A stretch of 32,000 nt of DNA, from contig JAEOSF010000036.1 of assembly GCA_016840515.1 (NCBI GenBank), forward strand, positions 3,959-35,958, in the 5' to 3' direction. This stretch comes from Candidatus Borrarchaeum yapensis (GTDB taxonomy: Archaea > Asgardarchaeota > Sifarchaeia > Borrarchaeales > Borrarchaeaceae). This document shows, piece after piece, positions 2,860-28,583 of the stretch. Positions within the stretch are counted from its first letter, which is position 1. Every line of letters begins with the position of its first letter. Both the position numbers and the translations under genes were made by a program. The notes under the pieces were generated by a model that was given only the letters and a program-made list of their open reading frames with translations, did no database searches and had not been told where the DNA came from.

Positions 2860-4929
2860 TTAAGTTATTTTTGAACCTGGACGAAGAGGCTGATCAACCA
2901 TTAGAAGGCCTAAAGCACCTGTTTGCGGATCTTCTGCTGCTAAGAGCATTCCATTAGATTTTAGGCCACGGATTTCTGCCGGTTTAAGATTAACTAGTAC
3001 TATAATCTGTTTATTCACTAATTCTTCTGGTTTATAGTAGCCGATTAGTGATGAGACAATTTGCCGCGTTCCAAGCTCGGCACCTAGATCTACTTCCATG
3101 CGAATTAATTTTTCAGTACCTTCAACATGCTCTGCTACAACAACTTTTCCTACACGCATATCTAATGTTTTGAAGTCATCAAACGTAATGAGTGGAGTGG
3201 GTTCAGAAGGTTCAACTAGTGTTGCTTGTAACGTTTCTTCTTGAGCCTTTATTATTTTGTCATCTATCTTGGCGAACAGGGGTTCAGGGTCTTCTACGAT
3301 TTTATGCCCTGCTGGAAATCCTTCAAGGGCTGCGTCCCAGGTCTGTTCGTGCACAGAATCCTCAAAATTCAGATCTTTCCACAATCTTTCTGCTGCAAAA
3401 GGTAAGTACGGTTCCATAAAAATAGTAAGTGCTCTAACTACTTTTGCACACACACCAAGCGTAGTTTTTGCCTTTTCTGGTGCCTCTTTTATCGCTTTCC
3501 ATGGGGCTTTATCATTAAAGTATTTATTGCACTTATGCGTGAAGTCCATGATGCTTGTTAAACCAGTACGGAGTTCAAAAGACTCTATACTTTTTTCAAT
3601 ATTCTTTTGCAGTTCGCCAAGATGTTCTAAAAACTTGTTATCGGCTTCATCGAGATCATTGATTTCTTGGACTACACTGTCAAAGAAGCGATTGGTAAAA
3701 GTAAGCGTTCTGTGAATGAAATTTCCGAGATCTGAAACAAGTTCATTATTTACTTTTGTTTGATACTCTTTCCATTTGAAGTCTGCATCTTCCAAAAGAT
3801 TAGAGTAACTAATCCAGTAATATCGTAAGGTATCAGGATCAAAGTAATCTAGGAATTCAGTGAGTCCGACGTACCAGCCTCTACCTTTGGACATTTTGCG
3901 TCCTTCAAGGTTTCCATATCCATATGTGGGGATTTTGGTAGGTACTCGATGGCCAGAGCCCATCAGTTCGGTAGGCCAAAAAAGCGCATGATGGTATACT
4001 ATCCCTTTTCCAATGAAGTGAATTAATTCAGTACCTTTTTCCTCTGCAAGATCCTTTAACCAAAATTCTTTCCATTTCAATTCATCTTTCGCCACCTCGA
4101 TTGCCCACTCCATTGTAGAAGTCTTGTAACCAAGAAAAGCGTCAAACCAAACATAAACAACCTTTCCTTCAGCATTATCGAGGGGAACGGGAACACCCCA
4201 GTCTAAATCACGAGTTATACAGATATCTTCCAGGCCAGGTTCCAGATATTGCCCAATTAAATATTCCTTACCGTAAACTGGCAGTACATCTTCCTCTTCT
4301 AGCCATTTTCTTAATTTTTCTGCAAAATTTGAAAGTTTAAGATACCAGTGCTTGCTTACTTCAATTAAGGTCGCTTCGCCGCAGAGCTTACAATGTGGAT
4401 ACAACAGTTCACCCTCATGAAGGGCTCGACCGCAACTGTCACATTCATCTCCTCGTGCGTGATCAAACCCGCAATAAGGGCATTTTCCTTCTACATATCT
4501 ATCTGGTAAGAATCTCTTATCATTAGGACAATAGGGGAGCGAAAGATCCTTCTCATAGATGTGTCCTGCTTCGTATAGCTTCAAAAATACCTCTTGAGTA
4601 GTTTTATAATGTAGTTTTCTACTTGTTCTCGAAAAATTATCAAATGAAATACCTAGGCGTTTGAAATCATTTGCATCCTGCTCATAGTATTTTGTAGCAA
4701 CCTCAATTGGCGTAACGCCCTCTTCTTCAGCCCGTATACTAATAGGTGTACCATGTTCGTCTGTCCCACTTACGAATACTATTTCATGGCCTTTTAATCT
4801 GCAATAACGAACATAGATGTCTCCCGGGATATATGTACTCCGTGCATGAGCTATATGCAACTCAGAATTAGCGTATGGGAGAGCACATGTCACGAGAATC
4901 TTTCTTTTTTTCAATACTACCACCTTCAT
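2860..4929 (-). CDS. metG: methionyl-tRNA synthetase with C-terminal tRNA-binding (Trbp111/EMAP-like) domain
   Basis: HIGH-type motif (PYANSELHIAHA), KMSKGRG (KMSKS), Cys knuckles CPYCG..CDSCG, and a C-terminal OB-fold tail (DMRVGKVV..NLKP..G..S.GM). Confidence 0.96.
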   Translation of the reverse strand: MKVVVLKKRKILVTCALPYANSELHIAHARSTYIPGDIYVRYCRLKGHEIVFVSGTDEHGTPISIRAEEEGVTPIEVATKYYEQDANDFKRLGISFDNFSRTSRKLHYKTTQEVFLKLYEAGHIYEKDLSLPYCPNDKRFLPDRYVEGKCPYCGFDHARGDECDSCGRALHEGELLYPHCKLCGEATLIEVSKHWYLKLSNFAEKLRKWLEEEDVLPVYGKEYLIGQYLEPGLEDICITRDLDWGVPVPLDNAEGKVVYVWFDAFLGYKTSTMEWAIEVAKDELKWKEFWLKDLAEEKGTELIHFIGKGIVYHHALFWPTELMGSGHRVPTKIPTYGYGNLEGRKMSKGRGWYVGLTEFLDYFDPDTLRYYWISYSNLLEDADFKWKEYQTKVNNELVSDLGNFIHRTLTFTNRFFDSVVQEINDLDEADNKFLEHLGELQKNIEKSIESFELRTGLTSIMDFTHKCNKYFNDKAPWKAIKEAPEKAKTTLGVCAKVVRALTIFMEPYLPFAAERLWKDLNFEDSVHEQTWDAALEGFPAGHKIVEDPEPLFAKIDDKIIKAQEETLQATLVEPSEPTPLITFDDFKTLDMRVGKVVVAEHVEGTEKLIRMEVDLGAELGTRQIVSSLIGYYKPEELVNKQIIVLVNLKPAEIRGLKSNGMLLAAEDPQTGALGLLMVDQPLRPGSKIT

Positions 4930-9708: not shown

Positions 9709-10734
9709 GTGGAAATTCCTGAGATAATCACCCGAAATCTGGAAGAAATCCTAACAGAAGAAGAACTAATCGAATTACTAAGATCTAAAAAGAAGATTAG
9801 GACATACGTTGGCTATGAAACAAGTGGATTTGTCCACATTGGGACTGCATCTACGGCTTTAAAGCAGTTAGACTTTTATAACGCAGGATGGGAAGTTGTA
9901 GTTCTTTTAGCAGACCTTCATACATTTTTAAATTCAAAAGGATCGAAAGAATGGATTGAAAGCATGATAGATTATTGGAGAGAAGTTTTCAAAGCCTTGG
10001 GATTGAAAAAAGCTGAATATGTCACAGGGTCTGAGTTCGAATATGAACCAAAATATGTTCTTGATCTATTAAGATCGACGCTTCTTACAACCCAAACACG
10101 AGCACGACGCAGTATGGATGTAATTAGTAAAGAAATGGATGATCCAAAGGTGGCTCAACTTGTATATCCTCTCATGCAGTCTTTAGATATTGGTGCACTT
10201 AACCTTGATGTAGCTCATGGTGGGATGGAACAACGAAAAATCCATGTACTTGCCCGTGAGATCTTACCAAAATTGGGTTATAAGAAACCAGTATGTGTTC
10301 ATGGCACATTACTTTCATCTATAAAGGGTCCTGGAGAAAAAATGAGTTCAAGTAAGCCAGAAACCGTTATTCTTGTCCATGAAAAGCCAGAAAGCATAAG
10401 AAAAAAACTGCAAGACGCTTATTGTGTTAAAGGACAAGAGGAAGATAATTTTCCACTTGATGTTGTGAAAATGATTATATTTCCTGTACTTGGAGAATTA
10501 ACTGTTATTCGGCCTGAAAAATTCGGTGGTGATGTACGCTACAATCGAGTAGAAGATATTGTTACGGACTTCGTACAAGAAAAACTGCATCCACTGGATT
10601 TGAAGAAAGCAGTAGCAGAAGCAACAATAAAGGTTTTCGCTGAAGTTAGAGATATGATTGATTCAAATAGAGACCTTCTTGAACCTTTAAAAGAAAATTA
10701 TGGTGCAGAATTAGTTAAAGAAATGAGTGTCTAA
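9709..10734 (+). CDS. tyrS: tyrosyl-tRNA synthetase (archaeal type), GTG start
   Basis: Class I motifs GYETSGFVHIGT (HIGH region), LADLHTFLN and KMSSSKP (KMSKS). TrpRS is less likely given the LADLH context. Confidence 0.88.
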   Translation: MEIPEIITRNLEEILTEEELIELLRSKKKIRTYVGYETSGFVHIGTASTALKQLDFYNAGWEVVVLLADLHTFLNSKGSKEWIESMIDYWREVFKALGLKKAEYVTGSEFEYEPKYVLDLLRSTLLTTQTRARRSMDVISKEMDDPKVAQLVYPLMQSLDIGALNLDVAHGGMEQRKIHVLAREILPKLGYKKPVCVHGTLLSSIKGPGEKMSSSKPETVILVHEKPESIRKKLQDAYCVKGQEEDNFPLDVVKMIIFPVLGELTVIRPEKFGGDVRYNRVEDIVTDFVQEKLHPLDLKKAVAEATIKVFAEVRDMIDSNRDLLEPLKENYGAELVKEMSV

Positions 10735-11246: not shown

Positions 11247-12797
11247 GTGCAGAGGTGCTTTCTAATGAAACAGTCGCTGACACTATTTGACACAGAAGAA
11301 ACTGTCCTCAAAACTCTTAAAGACGATTTGATGGATATTAAGAGTATATCAAAATCTACTCAATTAGATAATGCTCAGATAAACTCAATTGCATTTTCAC
11401 TTCAAGAAAAAGGACTGGTTCAAATAGTTGAGGAAAAAAGCACATTCATCTTTTTGTCAGACGAAGGCAAAAAATATGCCGCGTTAAAATTGCCCGAGAT
11501 TCGATTACTTCATTATCTCTGTAAAGTAGGAGCACAAGAAATCCCTACACTCCTACAGACGCAAGATCACGGAATGGAAAAGGTAGAGGTTACAATAGGA
11601 CTCAATTGGTTAAAGAAAAAGAAATGGGCAGAGCTTCAAAAACAACAAAATGGAGCAACGCTCCTTTATGTAACTGAAAATGGCAAAGAAGCAGCACTTG
11701 ACCCCTGTTGCGAAGAGGAACTAATTTCTCTTTTAGCTGAAAGTGATTTAGTCTTAGAGGAAATGCCATCTAAGTATAAAGATAGTTATCTTGAATTTAG
11801 AAAAAGAAAATTACTAAAAGAAAAGGAAATAACAACAAGAAAACTTCAATTAACGGAACTTGGAATGAAAGTGGCGGCAGGAGAAGTCCAAATTATCAAA
11901 GAAGTAAGTAAACTTACTCGTGATGATATAACCTCTGGAAGATGGAAATCTGTCGTGCTTAAACCCTATAATGTTACAGCATCTCCTCCTACTGTATATC
12001 TCGGGAAGAAACAGCCGTTCCTTGAATTCTTAGAAGAGGTAAGAAGAGCAGTAATCGGAATGGGATTTCAAGAGGCAAAAGGTCCCCTCATCGAGATGGA
12101 GTTTTGGAATTTTGACGCTCTTTTCCAGGCTCAGGATCACCCCGCGAGGGAGATACACGATACGTATTACTTAAAAGATCCGATATTTGGTGATTTAGAA
12201 CTAGATGATCTAAGAAAACGAGTCAAAGCGACTCACGAAAATGGCTGGACAACCGGTTCGCGCGGTTGGAGATATCCTTGGAGTTTGAAACGTGCATCCC
12301 GACTTATTCTTCGTTCCCAAACTACATCGGTATCTATGCGATTTTTGCATGAGCATAAGACTCCCCCACTCAAAATGTTCTGCCTTGATAGGAATTTCAG
12401 ACCTGATGTCTTAGATGCTACACATGCTATAGAGTTTTTTCAATTGGAGGGTATTGTAGGCGACAAGAGCTTGACTTTAAAACACCATCTAGGATATTTG
12501 AAACAAATTGTGATAGAACTAATTCCAGGTGCAGAAGTGAAATTTAAACCGGGCTATTTTCCTTTTACGGAACCTTCTGTTGAAGTCTTCGCTCGTCATC
12601 CGAAACTAGGATGGATAGAAGTCGGAGGATCTGGAATTTTCCGACCAGAAGTCGTAAAACCATTTAATGTTGACTTTCAGGTGCTCGCTTGGGGGATTGG
12701 CATTGCAAGATTAGCTATGATTTACCTTGAGTATGATGATATTCGCGATCTTTATAGCGATAACCTTGACCTTCTACGGACTAAGGAAGTGAGGTAA
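11247..12797 (+). CDS. pheS: phenylalanyl-tRNA synthetase alpha subunit (archaeal/eukaryal type)
   Basis: Long N-terminal winged-helix region plus a class II core (FQAQDHPARE, FRPD..DATH..EFFQLEG, GYFPFTEPS, GSGIFRPEV, GIGIARLAM). The ATG at 11265 is an alternative start. Confidence 0.93.
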   Translation: MQRCFLMKQSLTLFDTEETVLKTLKDDLMDIKSISKSTQLDNAQINSIAFSLQEKGLVQIVEEKSTFIFLSDEGKKYAALKLPEIRLLHYLCKVGAQEIPTLLQTQDHGMEKVEVTIGLNWLKKKKWAELQKQQNGATLLYVTENGKEAALDPCCEEELISLLAESDLVLEEMPSKYKDSYLEFRKRKLLKEKEITTRKLQLTELGMKVAAGEVQIIKEVSKLTRDDITSGRWKSVVLKPYNVTASPPTVYLGKKQPFLEFLEEVRRAVIGMGFQEAKGPLIEMEFWNFDALFQAQDHPAREIHDTYYLKDPIFGDLELDDLRKRVKATHENGWTTGSRGWRYPWSLKRASRLILRSQTTSVSMRFLHEHKTPPLKMFCLDRNFRPDVLDATHAIEFFQLEGIVGDKSLTLKHHLGYLKQIVIELIPGAEVKFKPGYFPFTEPSVEVFARHPKLGWIEVGGSGIFRPEVVKPFNVDFQVLAWGIGIARLAMIYLEYDDIRDLYSDNLDLLRTKEVR

Positions 12798-12803
12798 AAC
12801 AAA

Positions 12804-14498
12804 ATGCCAACTATTACAGTTTCTTATAATGACCTTATTAGTCTGATTGGAAAAGAGATCCCATTAGAAACAATAGAGGATCGTTTGTTTTACATTAAAG
12901 CAGAAGTTGAAGATATCACACCAATTTATGGGTCAAAAAATGAAGTAATTGATCACGATCTTCAAGTTGAGATCACTTCAGACAGACCTGATCTGCTCTC
13001 AGCAAGTGGTCTCGCGCGCGTCTTAAAAGGTGTTTTTGAAATAGAAATGGGGCTCCAAAAGTTTGATGTTGAACCTTCTGGAATTCAATGTACTGTAGAC
13101 TCTTCTGTACTAGATGTACGTCCCTATATCGTTTGTGGCGTTGTTAAAAATGTTCATTTAACAGATGCCTTAGTTCGACAGTTAATGCAACTCCAGGAAA
13201 AAATTCACGACACCCACTGTCGTAGACGGCGAAAGGGCTCTATTGGGCTTCACAATCTCGATGCAGTTGAACCACCTTTCGCATACTTGGCAGAAAAACC
13301 AGAGAATATCAACTTCGTTCCACTTAACGAGACAGAAAAAATGAATGGGTATGAAATACTAAGAGAGATTCCAAAAGGGCGGGATTATGCTCATATAATA
13401 TCGGATTTCGACAGATATCCGCTTTTGGTTGACAAAAATGGTGATGTTCTCTCTCTTCCCCCAATAATCAATGGCAATCTAACAAGAGTTGACATGGATA
13501 CTAGAAATCTCTTTTTTGACGTGACCGGAACTGATGAATATATCATTATTTATGCTCTACACATTCTTCTTGCTGATCTTTACGATCGTGGCGCGAAAAT
13601 CGAATCAGTTGAGATTCTCTATCCTGACAAAACTCCTGAAGTTTACCCTAACTTCACACCTACTAAAATGAACTTGAGTCTAAAAAACACAAATGAACTG
13701 CTTGGATTTGGCTTAAACCTGAATGATTTAACAACTATACTGAAAAAGATGCGATTTGATTCAAAAGAAATTGATGATGACACTTTAGAGGTTCTTGTGC
13801 CTGTATATCGACCAGACTTTCTTCATGAAGTTGATATAATCGAAGACGTGAGTATTGGCTATGGCTATGATATAATGGAACCTGAGCTTCCGCAATCAAT
13901 GACTGTGGGCGGCGAACTTCCTTTAAGCACATTCGAACGTAAAATTAAAGATTTGATGGTTGGAATGGGCTTTCAAGAAATTTTGAATTATGTCCTTACA
14001 AATAAGCATGATCTTGAGACAATTCGTTCATTTACTGAATCTAATGAGATAACTGAAATTGCTAACCCTGTAAGTGAGAAATATACTTTCATTCGCAATC
14101 AATTACTGCCAGGACTCATTAACTTTCTGAATAAAAATACCCATAGTGCTTTTCCGCAGAAAATCTTTGAGATAGGCCCTGTCGGAATCCCTGATTCGTC
14201 TGTTATAAATAAGGTGCGTACTGTTTCAAGAATCGCTGCAGCCATTACTGACTATGCTACAAGTTATGAGCATATTCAAGCAGTAGTAGGAGGGCTTCTC
14301 AACAACTTAGGCGTTCCATTTGAACTGAAAACTGCGGTCAATCCTTCTTTTCTTGAGGGAAGAGTTGCTGAGGTCTTTGTAAAAGGTAACAAAGTAGGTG
14401 TTTTGGGAGAACTTCATCCCGAGGTATTGCTTAAATTTAAACTAGAAAACCCCACCGCCGTTTTCGAAATTGAAGAACTCCCGCTCTTTGAAGCATAG
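12804..14498 (+). CDS. pheT: phenylalanyl-tRNA synthetase beta subunit (archaeal/eukaryal type)
   Basis: Starts 7 nt after pheS. B3/4 and B5 domain features are present (RPDLLSASGLAR, RPDFLHEVDIIEDV.IGYGY). Confidence 0.92.
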   Translation: MPTITVSYNDLISLIGKEIPLETIEDRLFYIKAEVEDITPIYGSKNEVIDHDLQVEITSDRPDLLSASGLARVLKGVFEIEMGLQKFDVEPSGIQCTVDSSVLDVRPYIVCGVVKNVHLTDALVRQLMQLQEKIHDTHCRRRRKGSIGLHNLDAVEPPFAYLAEKPENINFVPLNETEKMNGYEILREIPKGRDYAHIISDFDRYPLLVDKNGDVLSLPPIINGNLTRVDMDTRNLFFDVTGTDEYIIIYALHILLADLYDRGAKIESVEILYPDKTPEVYPNFTPTKMNLSLKNTNELLGFGLNLNDLTTILKKMRFDSKEIDDDTLEVLVPVYRPDFLHEVDIIEDVSIGYGYDIMEPELPQSMTVGGELPLSTFERKIKDLMVGMGFQEILNYVLTNKHDLETIRSFTESNEITEIANPVSEKYTFIRNQLLPGLINFLNKNTHSAFPQKIFEIGPVGIPDSSVINKVRTVSRIAAAITDYATSYEHIQAVVGGLLNNLGVPFELKTAVNPSFLEGRVAEVFVKGNKVGVLGELHPEVLLKFKLENPTAVFEIEELPLFEA

Positions 14499-17182: not shown

Positions 17183-17305
17183 GGACCTTCAGCATTCAGT
17201 TTTCCCATCTGCTCTCGCAAGATAGTACTCACACGAACGTGTCCAGGCTTAACTTCTGAGTTCGGCTGGGATCAGGTGTGACCCTGGACCTATGACCGAA
17301 GATCC
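17183..17305 (-). rRNA. rrf: 5S ribosomal RNA
   Basis: The minus-strand RNA GGAUCUUCGGUCAUAGGUCCAGGGUCACACCUGAUCCCAGCCGAACUCAGAAGUUAAGCC.. contains the universal CCGAACUCAGAAGUUAAGC block. Helix I (GGAUCUUCGG / CUGAAGGUCC) closes the molecule. Length 123 nt. Confidence 0.95.
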
Positions 17306-17371: not shown

Positions 17372-17609
17372 TGGTGGGGACGGAGGGATTTTCAGAAAAA
17401 GAGGTTATCTCTATTTTCCTTTGAACCCCCGACATCCGCCAACCCGTGAATCCACGTTTTGTCATCGGGTTTCTCTGGTAAGCACAACTCCAGAAGATCT
17501 TCATCCTTCCGTCAGTTTTTGCTATTTACAAACCTCTGGAGCCCGACGTGCTACATTACCTCATACTAACCTACCAGAGATTAATACGAACTGGCTACAC
17601 TACGTCCCC
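17372..17609 (-). tRNA. tRNA-Trp(CCA) with four putative introns; CCA encoded
   Basis: Acceptor GGGGACG/CGUCCCC and A73. Anticodon arm UCGGG-CUCCAG[65 nt]A-CCCGA. T arm GGGGG-UUCAAA[31 nt]U-CCCUC. D arm GUGU-AGCCAG[36 nt]GUA-GCAC. Variable loop UG[29 nt]GUC. The segment lengths sum exactly to 238 nt, giving a 77-nt mature tRNA. Confidence 0.85.
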
Positions 17610-17711
17610 AATTCAATTGTAGGTACGAAATAGTGTTCTTGATTCAATTTTAAATCTTACTAAAATGATGTTTTGATTATTCCTCAATTACAAAATAACT
17701 TTGAAGAAGTG

Positions 17712-18857
17712 TTATTTCCTTAGTTCGCTTACAATTTTCTTTAAATCATCTGCTGTCGCTGATGGACCTACGAGTAATATTTTTTTACGTCCACCTGATC
17801 CCACGTGGCAATAGACTGCAAGGTTTTCAGTTCCTACAATATAAATATCACAGTCTTTCGCATCGCTTAACACTAAGGTATTTTGGGTTCGTTCTTTCTC
17901 TAACACACCACCAAGTAACAAGGTGTCCTGAAATTTGTCATCGCCAACAGCATCTAAAATGAATCCAATATCGCTCCAGAGACTCCCATCAACTGTGATG
18001 TAGTAATAGTCATTGAATCGTGAATTCAGATCATGTGAGAAATCTAAGGGTCCAAGTGGTTGAGATTTTTTATAGGAAAGCCGCACAACATCATCAGCAT
18101 CATTGCCTTCGCTAACAGCCTCTTTTATAGCCTGTGTAAGTTTATCTAAAACATCATCACCCGAGAAGGCCTTTAACCATGCAAGAATCGTGCCGCTCCA
18201 AATCATTGTGTTAATTCCAAAAACCACATCTGCACCTACTTTTTCTAATACGCTTGCATCTGGTTTCTCACGAAACTGAACGCATTTCAAAAGTGGGTAT
18301 TCGCCCTCTTCTAAGAGGACACATTCAGCAATGCCCATTTGAGTCGGATCATGATGTTCTTGAAACGAGGCTTGCAGACCTATAATTTTTTCGGGATGTT
18401 CCATCGTCTTATTTAAGAGGACAAGTTCAGCATTGATGAATTCATCAGCTTTATCATGATCACAGGGCATAAAGATTAGCAGAATTTCTTCTGCACAATC
18501 CTCGTTGATCCATCCTGTAATCTTGCATTTTTTACATTGATTCAAATGGGAGTAAATTATTCGTGCAATTGCAGCTGGAAACATATGTCCATTAGAACGG
18601 ACAAACGGAGGCTCTTTTAGGACTATATCGATTTTAGCCTCTTTAATCCACGATTGCGTTGCATCATCCTCTTTGATGGCGAGTATAACTTGTAGAGGTG
18701 TCCGTTCTCGAACACGTAGAACATCAGCCAGCAACATCCTAGTTTTATCTCGTCTTATCTTCAGTAAGTGCTTAGGAAATCCTCCAAATCGCGCTGCTCG
18801 TCCCCCAGCCGATGTTAAAAGAAATTTCTCTGTGTGATGGATTTTACTCTGTGCCAT
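17712..18857 (-). CDS. nucleotidyltransferase-fold protein (sugar-phosphate nucleotidyltransferase-like)
   Basis: The N-terminal LLTSAGGRAARFGGFPKHLL resembles the G-x-G-x-R..PK.LL motif of NTP-transferases. 381 aa. Confidence 0.6.
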   Translation of the reverse strand: MAQSKIHHTEKFLLTSAGGRAARFGGFPKHLLKIRRDKTRMLLADVLRVRERTPLQVILAIKEDDATQSWIKEAKIDIVLKEPPFVRSNGHMFPAAIARIIYSHLNQCKKCKITGWINEDCAEEILLIFMPCDHDKADEFINAELVLLNKTMEHPEKIIGLQASFQEHHDPTQMGIAECVLLEEGEYPLLKCVQFREKPDASVLEKVGADVVFGINTMIWSGTILAWLKAFSGDDVLDKLTQAIKEAVSEGNDADDVVRLSYKKSQPLGPLDFSHDLNSRFNDYYYITVDGSLWSDIGFILDAVGDDKFQDTLLLGGVLEKERTQNTLVLSDAKDCDIYIVGTENLAVYCHVGSGGRKKILLVGPSATADDLKKIVSELRK

Positions 18858-19741: not shown

Positions 19742-19817
19742 GCCGCCGTAGCTCAGTTGGCAGAGCGTTGGACTTGTAATCCAATGGTCGAGGGTTCAAA
19801 TCCCTTCGGCGGCTCCA
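19742..19817 (+). tRNA. tRNA-Thr(UGU), intron-less, CCA encoded
   Basis: Perfect cloverleaf: GCCGCCG UA GCUC AGUUGGCA GAGC G UUGGA CUUGUAA UCCAA UGGUC GAGGG UUCAAAU CCCUU CGGCGGC U CCA. Confidence 0.97.
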
Positions 19818-19855: not shown

Positions 19856-20025
19856 GGGCGGGTGGTCTAGCATGGTATGATTCCGGATTTGGGTGTCCTC
19901 CTCTTAATGGGGAAGCAAAAACATCCGGAGTTCTGCTTGGGTAACCCCAGCACGATACGGAATGACTCTACACACACGCTGTGGGGTTCCAGAAGCCGGG
20001 AGTTCGAATCTCCCCTCGCCCACCA
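19856..20025 (+). tRNA. tRNA-Pro(UGG) with two putative introns; CCA encoded
   Basis: Acceptor GGGCGGG/CUCGCCC and A73. Anticodon arm CCGGA-UUUGGG[29 nt, 19894-19922]A-UCCGG. Variable loop AG[64 nt, 19931-19994]GCC. T arm GGGAG-UUCGAAU-CUCCC. 170 nt minus 93 nt gives 77 nt. Confidence 0.75.
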
Positions 20026-26016: not shown

Positions 26017-26210
26017 CCCCTCTCTTTTTTTCTTTTTTTATTTTGCCTCTAACTTAATTCTAGGTGTTGATTTTCCAAAGTATATTGAGAAAGAGCTGTT
26101 TTCTCCTTATGCAATAAAGAAACATTAGAAAGTTAACTATTGAGAGGGATATTCTTTTATATTGTAGTTACTTATGACGTAATCTAGCTATAATAACTTA
26201 ACATCACCAA

Positions 26211-26435
26211 GCCGGGGTGGCTAAGAGTCGATGCATGAGGAAATTGCCCTCACTACATCGATGAGAAGCCTGGTTATAGCGCCGGACACTCTCCGAGCCG
26301 GTTTCATAGAGATTATCCCAAGAAAGCCCTTTCTTGAGACATCCGGAGAGACGTTACACGTTGAGGTAATGTTCTGAAGGTCGCGGGTTCGAATGGATGA
26401 GCGTAACGCTCTTTCCGAAAAGCCCGCCCCCGGCA
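26211..26435 (+). tRNA. tRNA-Met(CAU), elongator-like (Ile2-CAU not excluded), with five putative introns; no encoded CCA
   Basis: Acceptor GCCGGGG/CCCCGGC and A73. D arm GCUA-[53 nt = 10-nt loop + 43-nt insert]-UAGC. Anticodon arm CCGGA-C[16 nt]UCAUA[32 nt]A-UCCGG gives the loop CUCAUAA. Variable loop AG[31 nt]GUC. T arm GCGGG-UUCGAA[28 nt]G-CCCGC. 225 nt minus 150 nt gives 75 nt, with exact bookkeeping. Confidence 0.75.
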
Positions 26436-26486
26436 CTATCCTTAAAGGCTTGAGACACACCCTACGAAATTGATACATCATAATAA

Positions 26487-26657
26487 GCGGGGGTGGCCGA
26501 GCCAGGTCAATTTGCCTATAAGGGTCAGATCATAGGCGCTGGTGTGTGAGGCAACTGCTGCCTTATACTACGAGACTTAAGATCCAGTGACGTAGGTCTA
26601 CGTGGGTTCGAAAAGTTTTGGCGAAAGCCTTTTTCGGAAATCCCATCCCCCGCACCA
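26487..26657 (+). tRNA. tRNA-Leu(UAA), class II, with three putative introns; CCA encoded
   Basis: Acceptor GCGGGGG/CCCCCGC and A73. The D region GGCCGAGCCAGGUCAA[23 nt]AGGCG restores the usual archaeal Leu D arm. Anticodon arm CUGG[32 nt]A-CUUAAGA-UCCAG. Long variable arm UGACGUAGGUCUAC. T arm GUGGG-UUCGAA[28 nt]U-CCCAU. 171 nt minus 83 nt gives 88 nt. Confidence 0.8.
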
Positions 26658-26696
26658 ATCATCTTCTAAAAAAACCCCTAATTTGAATAAAAAAAT

Positions 26697-26830
26697 GCCC
26701 CGATAGCTCAGCTGGTAGAGCGCGACCTTGGTAAGGTCGAGTTATCTTCGGAACTCCCGAAGATAAGATAAGTCGCGGGTTCGAAGGTTTTAAGAGAAAT
26801 CTCTTTCCGAAACACCCGCTCGGGGCTCCA
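26697..26830 (+). tRNA. tRNA-Thr(GGU) with two putative introns; CCA encoded
   Basis: GCCCCGA UA GCUC AGCUGGUA GAGC G CGACC UUGGUAA GGUCG AG[30 nt]GUC GCGGG UUCGAA[28 nt]A CCCGC UCGGGGC U CCA. 134 nt minus 58 nt gives 76 nt. Confidence 0.87.
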
Positions 26831-26939
26831 TTTCCATAATTTTTCACAATCTGTTGATAGAATATTGCGTACTCAACTCTACAGATTCACTAGTATCTGC
26901 ATTTAAAGTAATTAGAATTCAAAAAAGTAAATTAAGGGA

Positions 26940-28064
26940 TTACACAGCAAGATGAAATTCTTCTCTCAACCGCTTTGCTATTGTTTCCACTCTATTCAGT
27001 TTACTTAATCCCCATTGAGTTACTCTGTAGTATTTCTTACGTCCTCTTCGGTAGCGAACGCATTCTGCTAAACCCATTTTGACTAGTCTTCGAAGTGTAC
27101 AAACGATGCAATATTCTTTTAGTTGTGAGAGTCGTCCAAGTTCTTTAATATAGTTTTCTCCTTCTGCTAACGCCTCTAATATCTTTTTCTCGGTTATCCT
27201 GTTATTGTTCACTCGCATCATATCTACTGGATACATTGCTGATAACTCGATTTCTCCTCGGATTAACTTTACCCTCTCTACTAAATTCGTCTTGCGAGGC
27301 ATCAATCCAAATTTTTCATACAGCACTACTTTCGTCAAGTGCTTCGGATTATTGAATCCTATGCTGTTCATCCATCTCTCATAATTCTTGTCTCCATTTA
27401 TCGCCAGAATTAACGTCCCATCGTCACTTTCCCACAACCTCTTAGGAATGACAAACCCTAATCGCCTCAACTGCTCCTGCAACTGTCTCATTAAAGGCTC
27501 ACTAATTGAACTATAGCTCAGAACTGGGTAGGTATGCGCTAATCCGTCTTTACTCTTAAAACTTAGACTTCCATCTCCATCGAATAGTCCTCGCATTAAT
27601 ATACGGAGAATTCTCAGATTTTGTAAAAAATATCTCGGGATTGTAATTGTCTTTTTTTTTCCATAGGGCAGCCCTAGTACTTTATTTTTGAATAATACCA
27701 GCTGTTTAGACTTTTTTTCTACGATAATTGTCCGCTCGCCTCTTACTCCTCTGAAGTAGATTCGTGAAGTGCCTCATAATTGTTTCAATAACGGCGCAAA
27801 GTGAAATATGTAATAGGGAAAATCATCTATGGCATGACCGTGATATTGTACCTTCTTGCTATTGCCTTCATAATTACCCATATGTCCATCACTAATATGT
27901 ATCCCAACATTTTCAGCGAGCTGCTCTGTCACCTCTTCAGGTAACTTCACTGGATGGTAAATTCTGCTTCCTCCAAAGTCTAACTCCCGAGTTGGCAGCG
28001 GAATTCTGCACCTCTGTTCAACTTCTTCTAACTTCTGAGCTCGATTTACCATATTATTCCTCAC
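26940..28064 (-). pseudogene. free-standing double-motif LAGLIDADG homing-endonuclease-like gene with C-terminal winged-helix domain, interrupted by one in-frame TGA (27774-27776)
   Basis: ORFs 27774..28064 and 26940..27596 are in the same frame (27776-27596=180). I translated the 59 intervening codons by hand and found no other stop. Joined length is 374 codons. The motifs VGIHISDGHMG and LFDGDGSLSF lie about 100 aa apart, as in monomeric LAGLIDADG enzymes. The C-terminal LRRLVKMGL..YYRVT looks like a wHTH. Confidence 0.72.
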
Positions 28065-28511
28065 TATCTCGCTTTTCTTGATAAGGGTTTCATAGCGTTC
28101 ATAAGAATTTTAAAATTTGAAATAAGTCTCCTTAGATCTATATATTTTCAATAAAATTTAAGGATATTCATCATTTTTGCCGTTATTCTTATTAAATTTA
28201 CAGAATGTTCATTAGAATTGACAAGAAGTTTCTTAGAAATGACAAAAGGTTCTACTATTTTTGTTAAGGTTACACTCAATCTTGATAGAAAATTCATCGA
28301 ATGATAGGAAAACTACTACAAATTTCGAACTGGTTCCTTCTTTCAAATGTCTAACAAATCAGTTGAATTTTCCCATAATTACTTAGAACAATGATAGAAT
28401 TGGTCAGATAATGAAATAACCGCCTGCAATTGTTATTGCGAATATTATTCCATTTATAAACAAATTAAAATTTCAACTAAGTTCTTTCAATAATGATTGA
28501 GCACCGCAACT

Positions 28512-28537
28512 AATCCGCGATCCTTATATAATTAGAT
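28512..28537 (+). repeat. 26-nt direct repeat copy 1 (AATCCGCGATCCTTATATAATTAGAT), TATA-box-like core
   Basis: 25/26 identical to copy 2, which lies 113 nt downstream. The TTATATAA core resembles an archaeal TATA box. Degenerate similarity extends about 30 nt upstream of both copies. Confidence 0.8.
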
Positions 28538-28583
28538 TCGAAGGTCTGAGTAATTGCTCTGTCCGAAATACCCATCTGGGGCT
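28537..28583 (+). other. orphan tRNA 3' fragment (T-loop + 59/60-type intron + T-stem 3' strand + acceptor 3' strand + U73)
   Basis: UUCGAA[GGUCUGAGUAAUUGCUCUGUCCGAAAU]A-CCCAU-CUGGGGC-U aligns block for block with the 3' part of tRNA-Thr(GGU). No matching T-stem 5' strand (AUGGG) or acceptor 5' strand (GCCCCAG) occurs upstream. Confidence 0.65.

Follow-up and report, generated by a model that had tools for sequence, protein, structure and literature searches.

Ten predicted bulge-helix-bulge-type introns in three tandem tRNA genes from an Asgard relative of Candidatus Borrarchaeum

Introduction

In three genomes of the Asgard lineages Atabeyarchaeia and Freyarchaeia, 92-95% of the transfer RNA (tRNA) genes contain introns, 228 in all, and over half of these intron-containing genes carry several of them, often at non-canonical sites, with a maximum of four introns per gene in the published tables (Valentin-Alvarado et al., 2024; PMC11291895). 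The subject of this analysis is a cluster of three tandem plus-strand tRNA genes at 26211-26830 of a 32,000-nucleotide (nt) stretch of contig JAEOSF010000036.1 from Candidatus Borrarchaeum yapensis (this whole stretch is referred to as the window), in which the genes with the anticodons CAU, UAA (Leu) and GGU (Thr) hold five, three and two insertions, respectively. Comparison with orthologous clusters and the geometry of the predicted splice sites indicate that these are functional Asgard tRNA genes, each interrupted by several short, protein-spliced introns of the bulge-helix-bulge (BHB) type, a reading to which we assign a probability of roughly 0.85. That the host belongs to the Asgard archaea and stands near Ca. 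Borrarchaeum is seen from the NCBI taxonomy, from a gene order common to the window and Ca. Borrarchaeum weybense (L007) over ~18 kb, and from an M17 aminopeptidase, encoded 1 kb upstream of the cluster, whose closest named relative is its counterpart in Ca. B. weybense, at 77% identity. It is thus not a member of the Thermoproteales, the group that a preliminary description of this DNA had named as the main one with multi-intron tRNAs. Another relative carries the name Promethearchaeota archaeon.

The cluster resembles the Atabeyarchaeia and Freyarchaeia genes in several respects: the hosts share a superphylum, introns interrupt the majority of tRNA genes, chiefly at non-canonical sites and in over half of the genes more than once, standard gene finders miss many of them, and an EndA paralog adjoins the gene of a hydrogenase maturation protease (HycI) in both, as annotated for Atabeyarchaeia in that study (PMC11291895). 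It differs in its Borrarchaeia-like lineage, in the five introns of one of its genes against a maximum of four there, and in density, with 16 introns in six genes here versus 228 over three genomes of ~40 tRNA genes each (PMC11291895). In addition, an analysis of intron presence and absence between species is given here, whereas there is none in that study (PMC11291895).

More distant parallels exist in other groups. According to the paper on tRNAscan-SE 2.0, archaeal tRNA genes hold up to three introns, and the record is 71 introns in 46 genes (PMC8450103). The multi-intron genes of Thermoproteales (Sugahara et al., 2007, 2008; via PMC8450103) have, like the present cluster, BHB and relaxed introns in the D-loop, anticodon stem, variable loop and T-loop, a need for ordered removal of neighbouring introns and a need for an (alpha-beta)2 form of the splicing endonuclease EndA (PMC5829648; PMC8450103); unlike here, the hosts are hyperthermophilic Thermoproteota with up to three introns per gene (PMC8450103). 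Likewise, multiple BHB introns at ectopic sites interrupt the D-loop and T-loop of nuclear tRNA genes in Cyanidioschyzon merolae, and their ordered removal has been shown by reverse transcription PCR; this organism, however, is a eukaryote (a red alga), its genes hold three introns at most, and introns are combined there with gene permutation (PMC3728597).

With its five introns, the CAU gene stands one above the highest published count found; that Asgard archaea can have intron-rich tRNA genes has been known since 2024. The ceiling of three introns per gene given in the preliminary description is out of date, as up to four per gene are reported for Atabeyarchaeia and Freyarchaeia (PMC11291895). 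In the literature searched, which does not span all journals, no report was found of five introns in one tRNA gene, or of tRNA intron richness of this kind in this lineage.

Gene structure and spliced products

The tRNA(CAU) gene (26211-26435; 225 nt) is made up of six exons of 15, 19, 5, 8, 14 and 14 nt, which give a 75-nt product upon removal of five introns; it has a discriminator A and no encoded CCA (CTA comes next). The tRNA-Leu(UAA) gene (26487-26657; 171 nt including an encoded CCA) yields an 88-nt product with CCA after removal of three introns, and the tRNA-Thr(GGU) gene (26697-26830; 134 nt including an encoded CCA) a 76-nt product with CCA after removal of two. ARAGORN calls these spliced sequences tRNA-Met(cat), tRNA-Leu(taa) and tRNA-Thr(ggt), respectively. 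The preliminary description had arrived at the same gene lengths, numbers of segments, product lengths and identities, and its placement of the ten insertions also stands; only its coordinates for the Leu gene (26488-26658) were shifted by 1 nt. Read by hand, the acceptor halves are GCCGGGG...CCCCGGC-A in the CAU gene, GCGGGGG...CCCCCGC-A-CCA in the Leu gene and GCCCCGA...UCGGGGC-U-CCA in the Thr(GGU) gene, and every acceptor, D, anticodon and T stem of the three spliced products pairs along its whole length. A 3' CCA is encoded in the Leu (26655-26657) and Thr(GGU) (26828-26830) genes as well as in the Pro (20023-20025) and Trp (17372-17374) genes of the window.

In the raw sequence, ARAGORN calls none of the three genes, even with its intron option, and Rfam gives no full tRNA but a single partial match, a spurious one, at 26697-26755. 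Six independent assemblies that share an identical M17 aminopeptidase have the cluster with 100% identity, so that an artefact of assembly is ruled out. An A/T-rich box, GGGATATTCTTTTATAT, at 26146-26162, ~50 nt upstream of the CAU gene, is kept in all orthologous loci and is a candidate B recognition element (BRE)/TATA promoter.

Archaea have three tRNAs with the anticodon CAU, and the anticodon alone cannot separate them. The G1:C72 pair of the CAU gene excludes the initiator tRNA, which leaves the elongator tRNA-Met and tRNA-Ile2, whose C34 is modified to agmatidine. The second identity has a precedent in the Ile2(CAT) gene with four introns in Freyarchaeia (PMC11291895), whereas ARAGORN names the gene Met, albeit by its anticodon only. 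We regard tRNA-Ile2 as unlikely; it would alter the name of the gene and not the intron finding.

Variation among orthologous clusters

Orthologous clusters were obtained from eight further sources (L007, L014-L020, L038) via the M17 protein and one DNA pattern search, a metagenome scan with the 17-mer GCCGGGGTGGCTAAGAG, which returned 29 loci, only two of them (L020 and L038) true orthologs. When exons and introns were compared over five to seven relatives per gene, variable sites were found to be concentrated in the introns of all three genes: 0/75 exon versus 37/150 intron sites in the CAU gene (7 taxa; Fisher p 6e-8), 3/88 versus 19/83 in the Leu gene (Fisher p 1.5e-4) and 2/73 versus 18/58 in the Thr(GGU) gene (Fisher p 8.5e-6). 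The rare exon changes are compensatory changes in stems, those of the Leu gene being located in the T-stem; one example is L015, with the acceptor GCCCCAG/CUGGGGC and the T-stem ACGGG/CCCGU. Moreover, three of the predicted introns (Met 59/60, Met 45/46 and Thr 59/60) are exactly absent from some relatives, and the structure of the Thr precursor has 98% of its cells paired over six taxa, as against 31-49% when the partners are slid. Collectively, this evidence points to exons under purifying selection and to putative introns that vary and are lost or gained, turning over fast between close relatives.

The same comparison bears on whether the three genes could be decaying pseudogenes or insertion-riddled tRNA remnants, with functional copies elsewhere in the genome. 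Standard tRNA finders miss all three, a true tRNA 3' remnant lies nearby (28537-28583) and the window covers only part of the genome, all of which would agree with such decay. Pseudogenes would nevertheless change evenly along their length, whereas here introns and spacers vary and exon positions stay fixed, save for compensatory changes. Decay is also at odds with the complete pairing of all four stems in each spliced product, with the promoter-like box GGGATATTCTTTTATAT kept upstream in all orthologs, and with the like construction of five of the six tRNA genes in the window, which recurs genome-wide in other Asgard archaea (PMC11291895). Pseudogenes are thus considered very improbable.

In two relatives the CAU gene is longer still: the orthologs at L014 398-705 and L019 1392-1669 (minus strand) measure 308 and 278 nt, and their 45/46 site holds a composite of ~110 nt that consists of an intron of the L015 type, a middle piece of ~50 nt with its own hairpin and an intron of the window type. 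Recursive BHB decomposition of these composite insertions gives 36-175 solutions and no unique one. The L014 and L019 CAU genes may hold six or seven introns.

Splice-site geometry

Splice sites were evaluated by a BHB rule in which, on each strand, a 4-nt segment of the central helix (H) is followed by two bulge nt and then the cut, with frames of the same length in the same genes as controls. All four central pairs form in 6/10 introns, compared with 2.5% of control frames (binomial 5e-8), and at least three of four in 8/10, compared with 17% of control frames; an intron helix or exon helix in exact register is present in all ten. The strict hBHBh' motif is found in the three introns at position 59/60, and the Met 37/38 intron joins them only after the 32/33 intron has been removed. 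For three of the introns, the boundaries were placed by comparison with relatives and not by motif quality. Together with the variability of exons and introns and the exact gaps in relatives, this enrichment of the BHB register upholds the earlier proposal of multi-intron, BHB-type genes.

In the CAU gene, intron 1 (26226-26268; 43 nt) interrupts the D-loop at 15/16 within a relaxed BHB, the central segment of which (GCUA/GAGA) has two Watson-Crick pairs flanked by G.A and A.G; its intron helix of 7 base pairs (bp) begins one nt past the 5' cut and ends six nt before the 3' cut. This intron was found in all 9 orthologs, and the metagenome contig search yielded no intron-less D-arm of the CAU gene. 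Its boundary was set such that the sole variable flank position (G/A at 26268) lies inside the intron. An alternative frame of 41 nt, with H 3/4 and a 12-nt D-loop, was discarded, since its pairs are not kept in relatives and the variable flank position would be exonic. Intron 2 (26288-26303; 16 nt; 32/33) forms an HBh' motif (H 4/4, h' 3 bp), with a central helix, CCGG:CCGG, that draws on the 5' strand of the anticodon stem; it is kept in all orthologs, with a hairpin that varies (C/U and other changes). Between introns 2 and 3, the intron map leaves a micro-exon of 5 nt, UCAUA (26304-26308; positions 33-37), which holds the anticodon and is unchanged in all orthologs. Intron 3 (26309-26340; 32 nt), at the canonical 37/38 site, has H 4/4 and acquires the full hBHBh' motif after removal of intron 2, as its outer helix goes from 0 bp in the primary transcript to 5 bp once 26288-26303 is gone. 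Intron 4 (26349-26379; 31 nt), in the variable loop at 45/46, is of the relaxed HBh' type (H 3/4, h' 8 bp); it is absent from L018, where the gene reads TCCGGAGGTCGCGGG, so that the mature variable loop is AGGUC, and L015 has a different intron at this site. Finally, intron 5 (26394-26421; 28 nt), in the T-loop at 59/60, has a strict hBHBh' motif (h 5 bp, H 4/4, h' 3 bp) and corresponds to an exact 28-nt gap in L007, L017, L018, L019 and L020, which read GGGTTCGAAGCCCGC.

The Leu gene is interrupted first at the 3' end of the D-loop (26511-26533; 23 nt; ~21/22) by an intron with a complete central helix (GGUC:GAUC, 4/4) and a hairpin containing one mismatch, in which the sole substitution seen in relatives sits in the hairpin loop. 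Its second intron (26543-26574; 32 nt), at 30/31 of the anticodon stem, has the weakest motif (H 2/4), although its intron helix of 10 bp is exactly in register and its 3' bulge, of 3 nt, borders on an outer helix of 3-4 bp; the substitutions found in relatives (G.U to A-U, A-U to G.U) preserve the 10-bp helix. The third (26613-26640; 28 nt) shows a strict hBHBh' motif in the T-loop at 59/60, a site occupied by a different 30-nt intron in L015 and L038. In the Thr(GGU) gene, the variable-loop intron at 45/46 (26742-26771; 30 nt) is of the HBh' type (H 3/4, h' 9 bp), and its helix 47-55/61-69 is maintained through one-sided changes in relatives. The T-loop intron at 59/60 (26786-26813; 28 nt) has H 4/4, an outer helix of 5 bp and a contiguous h' of only 1 bp; it is absent from L015, which reads GGGTTCGAGCCCCGT, and measures 31 nt in L007, L014, L018 and L019, with a hairpin that shows three compensatory pairs.

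The intron count might still be overstated if some of the insertions, most of all the 43-nt one in the D-loop of the CAU gene and the 32-nt one at 30/31 of the Leu gene, were not spliced by EndA and were otherwise removed or retained, or if boundaries and numbers differed from those given above. Indeed, both have central helices with only two of four pairs, both occur in every ortholog and so lack exact-gap evidence, no intron-less D-arm was found in metagenomes, and relaxed BHB criteria are permissive. Against this, there would be no D-arm or anticodon stem unless the two insertions were removed, yet the exons that flank them are invariant across taxa whose M17 peptidases are only 77-88% identical. 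Furthermore, their intron helices of 7 and 10 bp both run from exactly one nt past the 5' cut to six nt before the 3' cut, as the BHB ruler requires, and are kept by the substitutions in relatives, and such relaxed motifs are cut by (alpha-beta)2 enzymes with an L1 loop (PMC5829648). An overstated count is accordingly judged improbable, and we retain ten EndA-type introns as the preferred reading.

Several other routes were considered and set aside. Self-splicing group I or group II introns were rejected, as such introns have a ribozyme core of hundreds of nt, whereas the insertions are only 16-43 nt long and have no Rfam match; for the region 26100-26950, Rfam returned no match inside the introns to group I/II introns, C/D-box or other RNAs at E values up to 10. 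Split or permuted tRNA genes were also discarded, all exons being colinear within 134-225 nt. A strict BHB scan of the raw genes was rejected as the sole evidence, given that it produces far too many candidate frames, and RNAfold minimum-free-energy folds of whole precursors were uninformative on splice sites.

A number of observations weigh against functional genes with ten BHB-type introns and temper the confidence placed in them. The cloverleaf calls on the spliced sequences come from ARAGORN, which also accepts random excisions of the same length in 0.4% (CAU), 2.0% (Leu) and 5.7% (Thr) of cases; its acceptance is thus a weak test, and the case depends on the comparison with relatives and on splice-site geometry. 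Four of the ten introns have no clean central helix (Met D-loop and Leu 30/31, 2/4 each; Met 45/46 and Thr 45/46, 3/4 each), the relaxed BHB criteria admit many frames, and composite insertions can be decomposed in many ways. In the CAU gene, the D-loop, 32/33 and 37/38 introns occur in all orthologs and hence lack presence/absence support. At the Met 45/46 site, the frame with the cleanest BHB (29 nt, giving a 7-nt variable loop) conflicts with the 31-nt boundary demanded by the intron-less L018 ortholog, whose AGGUC loop led to rejection of the shorter frame. Lastly, the case is built from DNA sequence alone, and the sole EndA paralog recovered has no catalytic His; neither the catalytic subunit nor the ligase was encountered, and no large protein search for the catalytic subunit was made.

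Predicted splicing pathway and EndA

Each gene would be transcribed as a long precursor, in which EndA, probably in a broad-specificity (alpha-beta)2 form, would cut two nt 3' of the 4-nt central helix on each strand; an RtcB-type ligase would then join the exons, and the introns would be released, probably as circles. In the CAU precursor, the two strands of the anticodon stem contribute to the central helices of the 32/33, 37/38 and 45/46 introns, and the intervening exons are 5 and 8 nt long. Because these strands are shared and the exons so short, the three introns could not all be cleaved at once, which implies stepwise removal. Frame analysis suggests that the 32/33 intron would be removed before the 37/38 intron.

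No EndA or RtcB gene was found within the window. On the same contig, ~5 kb beyond the window end, lies an EndA-family gene (L001 1971-2609; 212 amino acids) that adjoins a HycI-like protease gene and whose product scores 109 bits with TIGR00324, against a cut-off of 59.6. When this protein is aligned to the Methanocaldococcus jannaschii enzyme, Tyr and Lys are kept and Glu stands in place of the catalytic His, which makes it probable that the protein is a structural (beta-like) subunit. A beta-like EndA is consistent with the (alpha-beta)2 architecture that has been reported from Asgard archaea, which carries an L1 specificity-broadening loop and belongs to the enzymes that, with this loop, cleave relaxed motifs (PMC5829648). 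The preliminary description had proposed that introns at such sites normally call for a broad-specificity splicing endonuclease, and had named the EndA type as a check; to that check the paralog near the window gives a partial answer, as the catalytic subunit and its loop were not recovered.

Turnover of T-loop introns and displaced tRNA 3' ends

The introns at 59/60 form one sequence family, with GGA or GGU at the 5' end, a short hairpin and a 3' end resembling CUCUUUCCGAAA that pairs with the T-loop. Members occur in four genes of the window (Met, Leu, Thr(GGU) and Trp) and, in L007, in the Pro gene. The presence of one family in several different tRNA genes suggests that these predicted introns have spread, either through transposition or because the 3' ends of tRNA genes were replaced.

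Immediately downstream of tRNA-Thr(GGU), the window contains a 1.7-kb segment (26831-28536) that is absent from Ca. B. weybense (L007). It is followed, at 28537-28583, by a partial second tRNA-Thr 3' end made up of TTCGAA, a 27-nt piece resembling a T-loop intron, and A-CCCAT-CTGGGGC-T. Two open reading frames lie in the segment, both on the minus strand: one at 26940-27596, with a weak LAGLIDADG_3 match and a helix-turn-helix-like region, and one at 27774-28064. The whole resembles an integrated and possibly decayed element whose attachment site was the 3' part of the tRNA gene, including the intron. In L017, a gene for a 290-amino-acid LAGLIDADG_3 protein is located immediately after tRNA-Met. 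A second displaced remnant is found in L007, where tRNA-Trp (17641-17899) is intact and has no T-loop intron; ~840 nt downstream of it, at 18744-18787, lie the 3' part of a T-loop intron and TCCCTCCGTCCCCACCA. Taken together, the intact gene and the displaced remnant indicate that an insertion seems to have replaced the 3' end of the gene, removing the intron. With displaced remnants in two cases, it is plausible that integrating elements that swap tRNA 3' ends provide a route by which 59/60 introns are gained or lost.

Fujishima et al. are said to have proposed, in 2010, a model of tRNA intron transposition and gain in archaea. In models of this kind (Sugahara et al., 2012; PMC3293823), related introns at the same position of different genes and presence or absence between close relatives recall the situation described here, a likeness that serves as a lead only. 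The two cases of a displaced tRNA 3' remnant with a partial T-loop intron beside an inserted segment are a further feature of the present loci.

In the Promethearchaeota metagenome-assembled genome, a gene for an IS200/IS605-type OrfB (TnpB/Cas12f-like) is inserted at L014 3737-4819, near the M17 peptidase gene, and is absent from that place in the window.

Other tRNA genes of the window

The window contains three further tRNA genes, two of which are interrupted. The tRNA-Trp(CCA) gene (17372-17609, minus strand) holds four introns, at 17555-17590 (36 nt, D-loop), 17471-17535 (65 nt, 37/38), 17434-17462 (29 nt, variable loop) and 17389-17419 (31 nt, 59/60), and its spliced 77-nt product is called tRNA-Trp(cca). 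The tRNA-Pro(UGG) gene (19856-20025, plus strand) holds two, at 19894-19922 (29 nt, 37/38) and 19931-19994 (64 nt, variable loop), and its spliced product is called tRNA-Pro(tgg). Of the tRNA genes in the window, tRNA-Thr(UGU) (19742-19817, plus strand) alone has no intron; it is found by ARAGORN and scores 76 bits with Rfam. In agreement with the preliminary description, the window thus totals 16 introns in 5/6 tRNA genes (Met 5, Leu 3, Thr(GGU) 2, Trp 4, Pro 2, Thr(UGU) 0), and the sites are mostly non-canonical, 13/16 introns lying away from 37/38, as counted over the window with the orthologs examined. In L007, tRNA-Thr(UGU) has a 30-nt variable-loop intron and tRNA-Pro(UGG) an extra 31-nt T-loop intron, both of which are lacking in the window.

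The window is rich in genes related to translation. On the minus strand, tRNA-Trp is immediately followed by a 5S rRNA gene (17184-17303), and genes for methionyl-tRNA synthetase, a class Ib (Tyr/Trp) synthetase and both subunits of phenylalanyl-tRNA synthetase are located at 2860-4929 (minus strand), 9709-10734 (plus strand) and 11247-14498 (plus strand).

Significance

A broader proposal can be put forward tentatively, at somewhat less than even odds: Borrarchaeia-like Asgards would carry the heaviest intron load per tRNA gene known from any organism, with five in the CAU gene and perhaps six or seven in L014 and L019; the 5-nt anticodon micro-exon would force a strictly ordered splicing, one intron at a time; and the turnover of T-loop introns would be driven in part by integrating elements that exchange the 3' end of a tRNA gene along with its 59/60 intron.

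The finding itself leaves the understanding of how such introns are spliced unchanged. The 5- and 8-nt exons offer a handle for asking how the endonuclease and the ligase cope with them, and the nine orthologous clusters, in which introns are present or absent at identical sites, form a benchmark for tRNA and intron finders. For the biology of the group, the cluster extends the proliferation of tRNA introns in Asgard archaea to another lineage and raises the count per gene to five, and the displaced tRNA 3' remnants with intron pieces provide a concrete, testable route of intron gain and loss.

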